DNA from: Promethearchaeota archaeon | GTDB taxonomy: Archaea; Asgardarchaeota; Lokiarchaeia; Sigyniarchaeales; Promethearchaeaceae | Assembly: GCA_016933055.1 (NCBI GenBank) | Contig: JAFGBS010000009.1 | Coordinates: 270,001 to 302,000 of the forward strand | DNA length: 32,000 bases | Direction: 5' to 3' | Shown: piece by piece, positions 15,238-26,312 of the stretch | Position numbering within the stretch: position 1 is the stretch's first letter | Layout: each line of letters starts with the position of its first letter | Position numbers and translations under genes: made by a program | Notes under the pieces: model-generated | Databases searched by the model: none | Told to the model about the DNA's origin: nothing | Seen by the model: only the letters and a program-made list of their open reading frames with translations

Positions 15238-15885
15238 TTATATATCAAGCTCTTTCTTTAGTTTTTCAATTTCTTTCTTGATTTTCTCCTTACTCTTGAT
15301 TTCAGGTTCTTCTTCCTCAAAATCAAAATCCAGTTCTGATTCTATACCTTCTGGAACTGCGGGCATCCCAGAAGCTTCAGTCATCAATAGTTCCGTTTCT
15401 AATTTCTGTAATTCCTCTTCCACATCAATTCCGAGATCGATTTCCAAGTCTCCAGCAAGTAAATCTCCCGCTTCCTCGATCTGCATGATTGATTCTTCTG
15501 CGCTATCCACTAATTCCATCGCCTTTTCTGGATTTACATTTGCAGCAATTTTTCCTAGTTCTGAACTACTAGCTTCAAGAGATCCAGTTACATCACTAAT
15601 AGTCTTCGCTTCATCAATTGCATCTAAATGACGTTCCAACTTCCCGATCATATTATAATATTTCTCAGATTTAAGCCGGTAAGTCTTCCATCGAATTAAC
15701 ATTTGTCGAGAAATATCCCGATTACCGGCTTTTAAAGCTTTCATTGCACGGAGACGTGCTTCTTGACTCTTTCGAGAGAATTCTTTGTTTTTCAGGTTTA
15801 GATGATGAATAGTTGTCTTAATTCTAGCCTGAGTCTCGACTTTATCAGCTTTTTTATTTTTGGGAAATAGTTTTTTGAAAACCAT
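15238..15885 (-). CDS. ESCRT-III Snf7-family protein (Vps20/32/60-like)
   Basis: N-terminal amphipathic MVFKKLF; basic helical hairpin (AMKALKAGNRDISRQMLIRWK); acidic second half with VEEELQKLE; MPAVP; C-terminal helix. Confidence 0.88.
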   Translation of the reverse strand: MVFKKLFPKNKKADKVETQARIKTTIHHLNLKNKEFSRKSQEARLRAMKALKAGNRDISRQMLIRWKTYRLKSEKYYNMIGKLERHLDAIDEAKTISDVTGSLEASSSELGKIAANVNPEKAMELVDSAEESIMQIEEAGDLLAGDLEIDLGIDVEEELQKLETELLMTEASGMPAVPEGIESELDFDFEEEEPEIKSKEKIKKEIEKLKKELDI

Positions 15886-17160: not shown

Positions 17161-17865
17161 GTGAAAATTTCTGAGTTAGTTCTTAAATTAGACATTCCTC
17201 GTTTAGATGAAGTATATTATCCCTTAGATGATAGCTACTTGTATATCGATTATCTAGAAACGCAAGATTTTACTCGAACTATAAACGAGTTATTTATTAA
17301 ATCCATTCCTATTCATATATTGGATTTAGGATGCGGCACTGGTATTCTGGGATTTTGCACTGTATATAAAATACTTACTCTGAAATTTGCCACACAAGTA
17401 GATCTAAGTTATGTGGATATTAATCCCATAGCCATTGAGACCGTAAAGTCTTTTGTAGATAAAAATTTCCATTTATTTGAGGAATTGGAGGACTTCTCTG
17501 AAAATTCCATAGATATTCATTATTATATATCGGATCTTTTTTCTGATGTTCCTTCTACTCGATTTGATCTTGTTGTTTTTAATCCGCCTTATCTTCCAAA
17601 CGATGAGGAGATTCACGAGAACCAAATTATCGATCAAGCTTTATATGGAGGATCTGAGGGGGTTTCTGTATCAATTGATTTTTTTAATCAAATCTCCCCT
17701 TACCTCTATCCTCACTCTAATATTTATTTCATCGCTTCTTCCTTAGGTGGGTTAAATACAATGGTCCCAAAACTTTCTCCCAATTTTAAAATTACTCTCC
17801 TTCAAAGTTTGCATATCTTTTTTGAAGATATATTATTGTTTCACGCCCGTCCCAAAATCTTCTAA
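17161..17865 (+). CDS. HemK2/Mtq2-like (release factor glutamine) methyltransferase
   Basis: VYYPLDDSYL N-terminal motif, LDLGCGTG SAM-binding motif, NPPY, GG.EG. Confidence 0.85.
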   Translation: MKISELVLKLDIPRLDEVYYPLDDSYLYIDYLETQDFTRTINELFIKSIPIHILDLGCGTGILGFCTVYKILTLKFATQVDLSYVDINPIAIETVKSFVDKNFHLFEELEDFSENSIDIHYYISDLFSDVPSTRFDLVVFNPPYLPNDEEIHENQIIDQALYGGSEGVSVSIDFFNQISPYLYPHSNIYFIASSLGGLNTMVPKLSPNFKITLLQSLHIFFEDILLFHARPKIF

Positions 17866-17984
17866 GAAATTATATCTATTGAGGTCTACAGTCTTTTAGA
17901 ATCCTTATCGGTATTTGAAACGACTTTTTAATCATTTTGATTTACATTAAATACTGTTCATTATTTTTCCTACATAGACTTCCT

Positions 17985-18278
17985 ATGCTTGAAATAACCA
18001 AGGAAGCGCAAGATTTCATTAAGAAATCTGGACACAATCAACCTGCTATTGTTGTATTCGAACGAACCTATAGTTCATGATGTGGTTCTCGAACTTATAC
18101 TAGTGTTCAAGTACACAATGAAACAGAATTGCGAGGATACGATGGATTGGAAGAAATTAAAAAGGAGGACGTGGAATTTTCTATTTTTATCGAATCCAAT
18201 CTTCATCCAAAACTCAAATTTGCATCCATAGATGTTCGTGGATATGGAGCATTTAAAAGATTAGCATTGATTGCGTAA
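17985..18278 (+). CDS. Probable selenoprotein, 97 aa, HesB/IscA-like small protein with UC motif (in-frame TGA at 18078-18080)
   Basis: MLEITKEAQDFIKKSGHNQPAIVVFERTYSS-U-CGSRTYTSVQVHNETELRGYDGLEEIKKEDVEFSIFIESNLHPKLKFASIDVRGYGAFKRLALIA*. The frame stays open for 65 codons after TGA, the TGA sits next to a Cys, and a SECIS-like hairpin follows. Confidence 0.85.
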
Positions 18279-18300
18279 AGCGTTTATGATAGGTAAAATC

Positions 18301-18354
18301 AGGCCAAATTGGATGATTGGTCAGTATAAAAGTGAGATTGATCATGACAGGTCT
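18301..18354 (+). promoter_or_regulatory. Eukaryote-like SECIS element in the 3' UTR of the selenoprotein gene
   Basis: Helix I AGGCC/GGUCU; core A-UGAU (18313-18317) / UGAC (18345-18348) with tandem G.A pairs; helix II UGGUCAGU/AUUGAUCA (8 bp); apical loop containing AAAA. Confidence 0.8.
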
Positions 18355-18431
18355 TGCAAAGACTTAACTGGCTTTAAGAATAAAAGAGAACTAAAATATA
18401 TCTATAAATGAATTAATGGTGAAATAAGAGA

Positions 18432-18881
18432 ATGAGTGATGACGAAGAAGTTAAAAAAATTCGCGAACAAAAAGAAGAATTATTAAAAAAAATGATTGCA
18501 GAACCTCAAATGCCACCGAACATACTTTATATCGATACGGTTGACCAGTTCAATGAACTAATTGAAACTTATAAAGATCAGATAATAATAATCGACTTTT
18601 GGGCCGAATGGTGTGGTCCATGTAAAATGTTTGGACCTATTTTCGAAGCAGCACAGAAAAAATGGGGACATGAAATTGTATTTGCTAAATTGGATACCGA
18701 AAAACTTCCAGGGGTAGCCCAACAGCTCCAAGTGATGGGAATTCCCATGGTAATGTTTATTAAAGGGAAAAAGGAGATTCATCGACAAGCAGGTGCTTTA
18801 CCTCGACAACACTTTGAGGACCTTTTGAAACGAGTAAAAGAAGCTGTAGATAGGGCGGAAAAAGGTTCTATGTATTCTTGA
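18432..18881 (+). CDS. trxA: Thioredoxin
   Basis: IDFWAEWCGPCKMFGP active site; cis-Pro motif GIP; SD-like ggtga upstream. Confidence 0.96.
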   Translation: MSDDEEVKKIREQKEELLKKMIAEPQMPPNILYIDTVDQFNELIETYKDQIIIIDFWAEWCGPCKMFGPIFEAAQKKWGHEIVFAKLDTEKLPGVAQQLQVMGIPMVMFIKGKKEIHRQAGALPRQHFEDLLKRVKEAVDRAEKGSMYS

Positions 18882-24893: not shown

Positions 24894-26312
24894 GTGGATA
24901 GATCATGGACACCTGATGTGAGAAACATCGCTCAACGCCTTAACCGTGCAATAAGGAAACAAGACTTCATTCAAGCCAAAATTCTAATTGATCAATTGAT
25001 CAACCAGAGGAGAAATGGAGTAAATCCTAATCTTCGTCAAGATGCTGCTATTGTGATAGATCACATAATTCAGAAATACGGTAAAGAGCAACCAACAGAT
25101 TTTCTCTCTGAAGATTGGCAAGGGGATTTTAAAGGAATTCGCAAGCGGCTAGTCATTTTATTTCAAACCAGAAACTTAGGGGAACTGAAAAAGCTACTGG
25201 AAAGAATGAATACTGTTGCTACTACGAATGCAGACTCTTCCGTTAGGATACAAGCTCTAAATATTCTTGCAGAGATTGCAAAATACAATGTGAAATTGGT
25301 GGATCTCTATGAACAGAAATATCTGCGAGTTTTTTTAGATGAAAAAAATCTCTCTATTCAGAAACTAGTAAATGAACTATTAGTACAAATCGACCCTGCA
25401 GAATATTATGGAAATTATGAACAGACCTTAGAAAAATTAAATCGTAGAGAAAAAAAGGTTAACATCACCGTGCGATATGATTTTCACAACGATTTTTTAC
25501 GATATAAAGTTCAAGTTCTTAATAATACGGAGGAAATTTTGTGGGATGTGAATTATCAGATAAATAAATATGAGAACAACTTAATTATCCGCCAAATTTA
25601 TCCAGACTTTTACGAAGTTTATGAAAATAATGTCATTTATCTTTCTATTCTTCGCCCTGGTGAAATGAAAGAGATTATTGTAACGGTGGAACCACGATCA
25701 CCTCAAATCTATCTGGAGGGAATGGTAAATTACAAAAAACAAAATGAAAATGATTACTATGCTATTCCCGCCCAAGATCTAATGGTGGATTTAATAGCAT
25801 GCTTACCCAAGTTCCAATTATTGGAAAAAAAGGTAGGTGTGAGTCATATTCGGGAATTTTTTGATTTTCATGTCAAATATAAAAGTTCCAACGTATTTGC
25901 ATTACCGAACTCGATTAGCCCTAAGTTAGCTTATAAGACAGGTAAGGAAATTCTAGAAAAGTTACATACGATACTGGCGTTAGATGTCATGGATGAAGAT
26001 CCATTTTTTGGGGAGGCATTGTTTTATGGGAAGACAGACGCAAATGAAGAAATTGTGGCTATATTACGCAGTTCTGAGGAAAACAAATCTCTGGAAATTA
26101 CCATTGGTACGAACAACAACACCCACTTAGTAGCAATACAAATCAGTTTTGATGATCAACTCCGTCAGAACTTAATTTTATGTCCTGAATTCTCACCACA
26201 TGATAAACTAATTGAGCTTAGATGCCCCCATTGTTTGAGTTCTTTTGATAAAATTCGAAACTGGTGTCCTTGGTGCGGTTTTGAACTCGATCCCAACTTT
26301 CTCCTCTCATAA
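24894..26312 (+). CDS. Helical-repeat + beta-sandwich + alpha/beta platform + Zn-ribbon protein (adaptin/coatomer ear-like)
   Basis: HEAT-like VRIQALNILAEIAK; Ig-like YKVQVLNN...LRPGE.K.I.V.V.P; platform-like ALFYGKT...LEITIGT; C-terminal CPHC...CPWC. Confidence 0.6.
   Translation: MDRSWTPDVRNIAQRLNRAIRKQDFIQAKILIDQLINQRRNGVNPNLRQDAAIVIDHIIQKYGKEQPTDFLSEDWQGDFKGIRKRLVILFQTRNLGELKKLLERMNTVATTNADSSVRIQALNILAEIAKYNVKLVDLYEQKYLRVFLDEKNLSIQKLVNELLVQIDPAEYYGNYEQTLEKLNRREKKVNITVRYDFHNDFLRYKVQVLNNTEEILWDVNYQINKYENNLIIRQIYPDFYEVYENNVIYLSILRPGEMKEIIVTVEPRSPQIYLEGMVNYKKQNENDYYAIPAQDLMVDLIACLPKFQLLEKKVGVSHIREFFDFHVKYKSSNVFALPNSISPKLAYKTGKEILEKLHTILALDVMDEDPFFGEALFYGKTDANEEIVAILRSSEENKSLEITIGTNNNTHLVAIQISFDDQLRQNLILCPEFSPHDKLIELRCPHCLSSFDKIRNWCPWCGFELDPNFLLS

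Follow-up and report, generated by a model that had tools for sequence, protein, structure and literature searches.

A probable selenoprotein gene of the CC/Se motif family with a eukaryote-like SECIS element in a Promethearchaeota genome

A 32,000-nucleotide stretch of a Promethearchaeota archaeon genome (assembly GCA_016933055.1, contig JAFGBS010000009.1, positions 270,001 to 302,000; this whole stretch is called the window, and its numbering is used below) was analysed at positions 17985–18278, where a sequence-only reading had proposed a gene for a selenocysteine (Sec)-containing protein that open reading frame (ORF) calling had missed. The in-frame UGA at codon 32 of this gene is very probably read as Sec. 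The proposal of a real selenoprotein was supported by conservation of the TGA and of a selenocysteine insertion sequence (SECIS) element, by a pair of Sec and Cys orthologues and by the Sec machinery of the genome, and that 17985–18278 is a selenoprotein gene served by a SECIS element we regard as very likely. The best explanation given below is highly probable as a whole, and the thioredoxin-coupled redox role within it is less likely than not.

The UGA codon and its conservation

The frame started with ATG at 17985–17987, stopped with TAA at 18276–18278 and would encode 97 residues. Its sole in-frame TGA (codon 32) was followed by TGT (Cys33) and then GGT, and 65 further codons stayed open between this TGA and the TAA, giving a product that reads ...TYSS-U-CGS.... 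All of these positions agreed with the sequence-only reading. Standard ORF calling recovered only three pieces in the region (Table 1). In an independent assembly of the sequencing run that is probably the source of this DNA, the sequence was identical, at a depth of 19.

The protein sequence with U changed to C was searched against 400 genomes from this phylum, translated in six frames. There were 21 matches in 13 genomes, all from one taxonomic family, and 12 of the family's 13 other genomes had a match. Exactly one in-frame TGA was present in each of the 21 homologues, always at the same column and in the motif (S/G)-U-C-G. In alignment A2, across which identity to the window protein went down to 22–41%, the invariant residues were U32, C33, G34, G86 and L93. 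A wider profile search extended the range to 28 Asgard genomes, with 50 matches that mostly had the TGA; a contig search with the U-to-C reading (P0001) gave no confirmed relative.

The window gene was also compared by codon position with an orthologue from the same genus (L018) and a metagenomic orthologue (L038). Differences at the first, second and third positions numbered 7/4/19 before the TGA, and after it 14/9/34 (against L018) and 14/8/38 (against L038); the TGA itself was unchanged among the three. Third-position substitutions dominated on both sides of the TGA, and by this measure both halves are evolving as coding sequence. The same TGA column in all 21 homologues, together with coding evolution of both halves, is more than chance would give.

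The sequence-only reading had proposed looking for homologues with TGA or Cys at this column, and both were found. TGA TGT in L031 and L035 corresponded to TGC TGT in the metagenomic orthologue L050, a close relative of these two, and CC occupied the Sec column in many more distant relatives (P0015, P0036, P0045–P0052 and others). TGA closed 421 of 2024 long frames in the window's genome, including that of the thioredoxin gene next to the selenoprotein gene, where it is the true stop, indicating that TGA was not reassigned in this genome.

The sole NCBIfam profile to match was NF041239 'CC/Se motif family (seleno)protein' (E 7.1e-8, 32.4 bits, profile positions 3–87 of 91), and this profile matched 20 of the 21 Asgard members at E ≤ 0.01 (best 8.8e-12). 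A vicinal CC motif with Sec at one position, as in this family, is present in the window protein as U32-C33. Close orthologues carried the Pfam label PF28096 CC_Se_fam, which was precomputed and flagged as weak.

The SECIS element and the Sec machinery

The SECIS elements described from Lokiarchaeota (lokiSECIS) consist of AUGA, a 9-bp stem, an 11-nt loop that starts with adenines and has a final G usually after A, and GA (PMC4989117). A candidate of this type was found with its core beginning 34 nt past the stop codon and 235 nt past the UGA (Table 1). Its stem arms, UUGGUCAGU (18317–18325) and AUUGAUCAU (18337–18345), were paired at eight of nine positions. A strict structural pattern occurred 11 times on both strands of the 3.76-Mb genome (7.5 Mb in all), and only one of the 11, the element at 18313–18347, had an A-rich loop ending in G.

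An equivalent element lay 1–47 nt past the stop codon in 19 of the 21 homologue loci. When these were aligned, stem sequences varied widely, and AUGA, three loop adenines and GA were invariant. Of the stem cells, 86% were paired; the figure for shuffles was 58%, and none of 500 came up to 86%; both sides had been altered by compensatory changes in all eight stem pairs, and the covariation score was 0.86 as against 0.24 for shuffles (0 of 500 reached 0.86). When the 3′ arm was shifted by 1–3 columns, pairing fell to 26–47%, with the peak at register 0. The position beside AUGA was unpaired in 16 of the 19 sequences, as expected beside a kink-turn core. Between the window element and that of L018 five stem pairs differed, and all five still paired, one of them through a double change.

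A hairpin was also kept downstream of the Cys-containing orthologue (L050:117-422), with TTGA and not ATGA as its 5′ core. It looks like a SECIS element decaying after Sec-to-Cys replacement.

Two covariance models, R1 and R2, were built from the SECIS elements of paralogues (17, rather similar), with the window locus and L018 left out. The top matches of R1 in the window's genome were elements behind a VhuU gene (...IRCYDPULSCAAH) and an MvhD/VhuD-like gene (...FMCWKUGYGAGD), indicating that the homologues' elements belong to the same class as SECIS elements of established selenoproteins. A CRISPR-repeat match in the Rfam scan of 17800–18600 was a chance hit (E 0.53). An alternative fold register, with AUGA canonically paired, was rejected, since the comparative slide control supported the SECIS register. 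The best R2 match in the window (25599–25638, minus strand) lay inside a long plus-strand ORF with no plausible Sec gene upstream and was taken as chance. A loose genome-wide SECIS pattern combined with upstream TGA-containing ORFs was too noisy at 35% GC.

The genome was examined for Sec machinery, as the sequence-only reading had advised, and three components scored above their cut-offs: tRNA-Sec (66.1 bits; called SeC with anticodon tca by ARAGORN), SepSecS (438 bits) and SelD (159.7 bits), the last with an in-frame TGA of its own. A PSTK-like kinase (133 bits) was the clear best match to its model, and a SelB/EFSec-like GTPase (229.5 bits) stood clearly above the next GTPase; both fell below cut-offs that belong to models built for other lineages. 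On these matches PSTK and EFSec are probably present. We propose that the ribosome would read UGA codon 32 as Sec under the direction of the Lokiarchaeota-type SECIS element in the 3′ untranslated region (UTR), with decoding by the archaeal/eukaryotic-type pathway of tRNA-Sec, PSTK, SepSecS, SelD and EFSec.

Some results weigh against this reading. R1, searched at E ≤ 10 over the window and at E ≤ 1 over the genome, did not match the window element, and R2 ranked it 12th of 27 matches in the window, with 9.5 bits (E 3.6). Trained on 17 elements of paralogues that are rather alike, both models lean on primary sequence. The predicted folds of the 3′ UTR and of the hairpin were no better than shuffles (z -0.45 and -0.72), and the Rfam scan of 17800–18600 gave no match to a SECIS family. 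Since R1, R2, folding and Rfam were negative, the SECIS call rests on the rule match, the position and the conservation in orthologues. In addition, the NF041239 score was below the curated cut-off of 40 bits, and a six-frame genome search with that profile gave 0 Asgard matches at the cut-off; because the homology is significant though below the cut-off, the window protein was treated as a divergent NF041239 relative.

Fold, function and alternative readings

An AlphaFold2 model built on A2 (predicted local distance difference test, pLDDT, 91.5; predicted template modelling score, pTM, 0.79) placed U32 and C33 between two long strands. The full-length sequence was predicted to fold as a single compact domain. 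The nine best PDB matches of the model were all of the IscA family (IscA, SufA, HI1723, AQ_1857 and DsrR), and 1r94, 1s98, 2d2a, 1x0g, 2apn, 1nwb and 2k4z matched with TM scores of 0.53–0.63 and Foldseek probabilities of 0.99–1.0. Cluster matches in AlphaFold DB were named IscA, ErpA, NfuA and ISCA1/2. In the best hhalign alignment, which was weak (E 0.08), U32 fell on Cys35 of E. coli IscA and G34 on Gly37. A profile search of PDB sequences with A2 gave nothing relevant, and PF01521, the family of the A-type carriers, scored 13 bits against the window protein (E 0.12; cut-off 26.3). The model confidently predicts an IscA/HesB fold, in which Sec would take the position of IscA Cys35. The likeness to HesB/IscA and CC/Se-motif proteins claimed in the sequence-only reading thus found support in the NF041239 match (E 7e-8) and in the presence of IscA, SufA and DsrR among the nine best structures.

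C33 was the only Cys of the window protein. Its C-terminus reads ...FKRLALIA, and the C-terminal CxC of IscA is absent; without the C-terminal C-G-C ligands the protein is by definition not an A-type carrier. No PF01521 match at E ≤ 0.01 was found in the window's genome (91% complete), and the selenoprotein may be the only IscA-fold protein encoded there.

In the mechanism that we propose, the Sec32-Cys33 pair would sit at the tip of a beta-hairpin, where A-type carriers hold their first cluster-ligating Cys. It would cycle between a selenol/thiol and a vicinal selenenylsulfide, and would exchange reducing equivalents, or bound sulfur, selenium or metal species, with the adjoining thioredoxin. 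Mammalian thioredoxin reductase has a G-C-U-G redox tail, and Sec32-Cys33-Gly resembles its reverse. A thioredoxin-coupled redox role based on a selenenylsulfide/selenol-thiol couple is the preferred reading of function, at a probability somewhat below even. The thioredoxin gene lies directly downstream of the selenoprotein gene (Table 1). Across the family a thioredoxin gene adjoined the selenoprotein gene in 9 of 26 loci. The adjacency favours such a role, and its restriction to 9 loci counts against it; these loci came from at least five genera, with the two genes in tandem in the window's genus and in one genome of another family, and divergent in two further paralogue groups. Also unfavourable is that other paralogues lay near PP-loop ATPase and ferritin-like genes. 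Since some relatives have U-G or U-S motifs without a vicinal Cys, a selenenylsulfide cannot be the mechanism of the whole family.

The main rival reading, possible though rather unlikely, is that the protein is a real selenoprotein that works not as a thioredoxin-coupled redox protein but as a carrier of iron, Fe-S clusters or chalcogen (S/Se). A cluster or metal would then be held between the Sec-Cys hairpins of two protomers, or Sec would deliver species of the persulfide or perselenide type to partner enzymes. The predicted fold of IscA, SufA and DsrR, the weak alignment of U32 with the cluster ligand Cys35 and the lack of a canonical PF01521 A-type carrier in the 91%-complete genome are consistent with a carrier, as is the location of the paralogues with the motif 'RVYRGUCG', which in related genomes have PP-loop ATPases (ThiI/QueC/NAD-synthase type) and ferritin-like genes as neighbours. 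The Atlas clusters nearest to the Cys homologue P0015 were HesB/YadR/YfhF (scores 0.84–0.86), to be taken as leads only. Conversely, the CxC of the IscA cluster site is missing and C33 is the only Cys, the PF01521 score was insignificant, the PP-loop genes and the selenoprotein gene run towards each other and hence are not co-transcribed, and the adjacency to thioredoxin recurs in two other paralogue groups.

The 'RVYRGUCG' paralogues (L019, L020, L022, L024 and L026) were convergent with a gene for a PP-loop ATPase of ~290–300 residues that had weak QueC, NAD synthase, ThiI and ATP_bind_3 matches, and in three loci a ferritin-like gene was nearby. Such neighbours hint at sulfur, selenium or iron handling.

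Another paralogous subfamily (L052–L060) had two adjacent in-frame TGA codons, with G-U-U-G in place of G-U-C-G. It was kept at nine loci in eight related genomes (G132, G134, G136, G137, G138, G140, G141 and G142), and most copies had an AUGA/GA SECIS-like hairpin 18–54 nt past the end of the matched region. The codons GGA TGA TGA GGG were also seen on a metagenome contig (L051:92-403), and no G-U-U-G copy was found in the window's own genome. Judged from its codons, the subfamily implies a natural vicinal Sec-Sec pair.

In other Asgard families (L039, L047, L062, L063 and L065) the TGA was kept and the next residue varied, the motifs being U-S-G, U-C-G, U-G-G, U-G-T and U-S-G; AUGA/GA hairpins lay downstream of L062 and L065. 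Since the TGA was kept in these families, the use of Sec in the IscA-like fold extends beyond one family. Cys33 was replaced by U, S or G in more distant relatives, and the occurrence of U-G, U-S or single-C motifs indicates that the first position of the motif is the essential one.

A wider scenario is doubtful at present. The lineage of Promethearchaeum syntrophicum (search family f1) might have turned a bacterial-type CC-motif protein of the IscA fold into one to five selenoprotein paralogues per genome, the G-U-U-G form included, which would jointly make up an undescribed chalcogen redox or relay system with thioredoxin and replace the missing A-type carriers. If true, this would be the eighth Asgard and the twelfth archaeal selenoprotein family, and would add a natural vicinal diselenide.

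As regards the decoding of codon 32, it is very improbable that the TGA is a true stop, in which case the region would hold a gene for a 31-residue peptide, or a pseudogene, and past the TGA either an untranslated stretch or a short ORF of its own. Such a stop would agree with the splitting of the region by standard ORF calling, with TGA as a normal stop codon in this genome, with the annotation of P. syntrophicum, where all that is listed of a paralogue is a C-terminal fragment of 51 residues, and with the public sequencing runs examined, which gave no expression signal (nothing mapped to the stretch from two metatranscriptome runs of the same study or from a hot-spring DNA run). Against it, the TGA column was kept in all 21 homologues despite their divergence, same-frame purifying selection continued past the TGA, an orthologue had Cys in its place, a SECIS element followed the full-length frame in 19 of 21 loci, and the full-length sequence was modelled as one compact domain.

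It is just as hard to believe that near-cognate decoding or a variant code inserts one of the standard amino acids, Trp or Cys, at the UGA, as 11 predicted metagenomic homologues with W at the Sec column might suggest. Each such W stands for a TGA codon translated with a TGA=W table, about a fifth of the genome's long frames end in TGA, a tRNA-Sec (anticodon TCA) and the full Sec pathway are encoded in the genome, and SECIS elements accompany the genes.

The 11 W-bearing homologues were full-length and 66–72% identical, with the codons TGA TGT and a translation flagged with_TGA=W; since their W codons are TGA, they are further Sec genes translated with the wrong table. Trp at this column had been named in the sequence-only reading as grounds for refutation, and this test would misfire. 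Other database entries were 32-residue N-terminal pieces ending at the TGA, or C-terminal pieces of 51–61 residues. One of these, the 51-residue 'hypothetical protein' DSAG12_04220 of P. syntrophicum, is the C-terminal end of the protein of L034 (G142:C1:1666328-1666618), and genome G142 held three family members, all with the TGA. The annotation of the first cultured Asgard archaeon wrongly shows the gene family as a fragment of 51 residues, and public protein sets keep such genes as fragments or with a false Trp at Sec, which should caution annotators.

The features of the locus are listed in Table 1. A CorA transporter gene also lay upstream of the selenoprotein gene, and a Snf7/ESCRT-III family gene (15238–15885, minus strand; PF03357, E 5e-15) was found 2 kb upstream, as would fit DNA of Asgard origin. 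If the candidate TATA box ATTAAATA is functional, a leaderless or short-leader mRNA is possible.

Table 1. Features of the selenoprotein locus (window positions) and SECIS-like elements elsewhere in the genome (genome handle, contig and positions)
Feature	Position	Strand	Basis or remark
Probable selenoprotein gene, 97 codons + TAA, predicted IscA fold, CC/Se motif family	17985..18278	+	Translation, 21 homologues, NF041239, structure model
UGA codon 32, very probably Sec; first residue of U-C-G motif; predicted beta-hairpin tip	18078..18080	+	TGA column in 21/21; TGC TGT in L050
Cys33 (TGT), vicinal partner of Sec32	18081..18083	+	Invariant in alignment A2
SECIS core, Lokiarchaeota type (eukaryote-like, type I)	18313..18347	+	Published lokiSECIS rules, 19/21 loci, covariation
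AUGA	18313-18316	+	SECIS core
U-U, unpaired first stem position	U18317, U18345	+	SECIS core
8-bp stem	18318-18325 with 18337-18344	+	SECIS core
11-nt apical loop AUAAAAGUGAG	18326-18336	+	A-rich, ends in G
GA	18346-18347	+	SECIS core, after stem
Whole SECIS with putative 5-bp lower helix (18301-18305 with 18350-18354)	18301..18354	+	Minimum-free-energy fold of 18298-18358
Possible archaeal TATA box ATTAAATA	17947..17954	+	~31-38 nt upstream of ATG; read from sequence
N-terminal ORF piece	17937..18080	+	Ends at the TGA
C-terminal in-frame ORF piece	18129..18278	+	Standard ORF calling
Out-of-frame 60-aa ORF	18049..18231	other frame	Called spurious in the sequence-only reading
Thioredoxin gene, WCGPC motif, proposed redox partner	18432..18881	+	PF00085, E 1e-23
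Small-domain methyltransferase gene	17161-17865		Upstream of selenoprotein gene; PF05175
SECIS-like element downstream of VhuU	G000:C11:166474-166531	-	R1
SECIS-like element downstream of MvhD/VhuD-like gene	G000:C11:129062-129121	-	R1
SECIS-like element with long apical insertion	G000:C5:34840-34924	+	R1

Comparison with known systems

A SECIS-based search in 2016 found five selenoprotein families in Lokiarchaeota and no further candidates (Mariotti 2016, PMC4989117), and the families named in the sequence-only reading (SPS/SelD, HdrA, VhuD, VhuU and Prx-like) agree with that list. More than 400 Asgard genomes were later searched by homology to known families, giving seven: SelD, FrhA/VhuU, HdrA, FrhD/VhuD, Prx-like, AhpF-N and DsbA-like (Huang 2024, PMC11227280). 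A 2026 review counts 11 archaeal families and lists NF041239, unmarked as archaeal (PMC13188914). In the open-access literature nothing relevant was found on an Asgard IscA-like selenoprotein or on an adjacent Sec-Sec motif. Within the open-access literature, the suggestion of an uncatalogued Asgard family was supported: the family is absent from the seven Asgard (PMC11227280) and 11 archaeal (PMC13188914) families. As a protein family it is not new, being already catalogued as a selenoprotein family in bacteria (NF041239, PF28096). The kind of gene is thus known, being a selenoprotein of a catalogued family with a described type of SECIS element; what appears to be unreported, within the open-access literature, is the presence of the CC/Se family in archaea. 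If this is confirmed, the archaeal selenoprotein catalogue is incomplete even for its best-studied lineage, since the surveys of 2016 and 2024 and the review of 2026 all omit the family.

Among the closest known systems is the CC/Se motif family, which the 2026 review lists as a bacterial selenoprotein family and traces to the prediction of a hypothetical protein in Moorella thermoacetica (PMC13188914). Its members are similar in size to the window protein (about 95 residues), and the NF041239 hidden Markov model aligns over the whole profile. The family has a vicinal CC, whereas the window gene has U-C, with Sec replacing the first Cys; the review gives the family motif as CxxU (PMC13188914), as against U-C-G here, the bacterial side of this comparison being by description only. 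Hosts and decoding also differ: the CC/Se family is bacterial with an in-frame SECIS element, and the window gene is archaeal with a eukaryote-like element in the 3′ UTR.

The HesB-like selenoprotein (TIGR01911 HesB_rel_seleno) occurs in bacteria and Methanococcales, e.g. M. maripaludis MMJJ_08070 (PMC11097638). Small, of the IscA/HesB fold and with one Sec where the first conserved Cys of IscA lies, it resembles the window protein as modelled. The review gives U-x-G-P as its motif (PMC13188914); L018 and L038 read U-C-G-P and the window gene U-C-G-S, which suggests, on sequence, that the two families are distant cousins. TIGR01911 gave no match to the window protein in the NCBIfam scan (E up to 10) and nothing at the locus in a search of its own genome, where the control genome scored above the cut-off; the NF041239 search of M. 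jannaschii, run as a control, gave nothing. Since each profile misses the other's members, the two are separate sequence families. Their decoding differs as well, the methanococcal HesB-like genes having GAA_A-type archaeal SECIS elements, not the AUGA/GA type (PMC4989117).

The A-type Fe-S carriers IscA, SufA and ErpA (PF01521) and their Cys-less relative DsrR are alike in predicted fold, with U32 on IscA Cys35, although neither PF01521 (E 0.12) nor hhalign (E 0.08) was significant against the window protein. The carriers have a single Cys and a C-terminal C-G-C, whereas the window protein has a vicinal Sec-Cys and no C-G-C.

The SECIS element was compared with the lokiSECIS elements of the VhuU, HdrA-VhuD and Prx-like genes (PMC4989117, PMC11227280). 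They have in common AUGA, a 9-position stem (its first position unpaired here), an 11-nt loop with an A-rich start and an AG end, GA past the stem and a place in the 3′ UTR near the stop codon. They differ in that the gene family served by the window element was not previously linked to lokiSECIS, and in that its primary sequence departs from the paralogues' elements, as seen in its score of only 9.5 bits with a covariance model. The family would add a further set of eukaryote-like SECIS elements, evolving independently, in which the transition from archaeal to eukaryotic Sec insertion can be studied; the set includes a Sec-to-Cys orthologue with an apparently decayed SECIS core.

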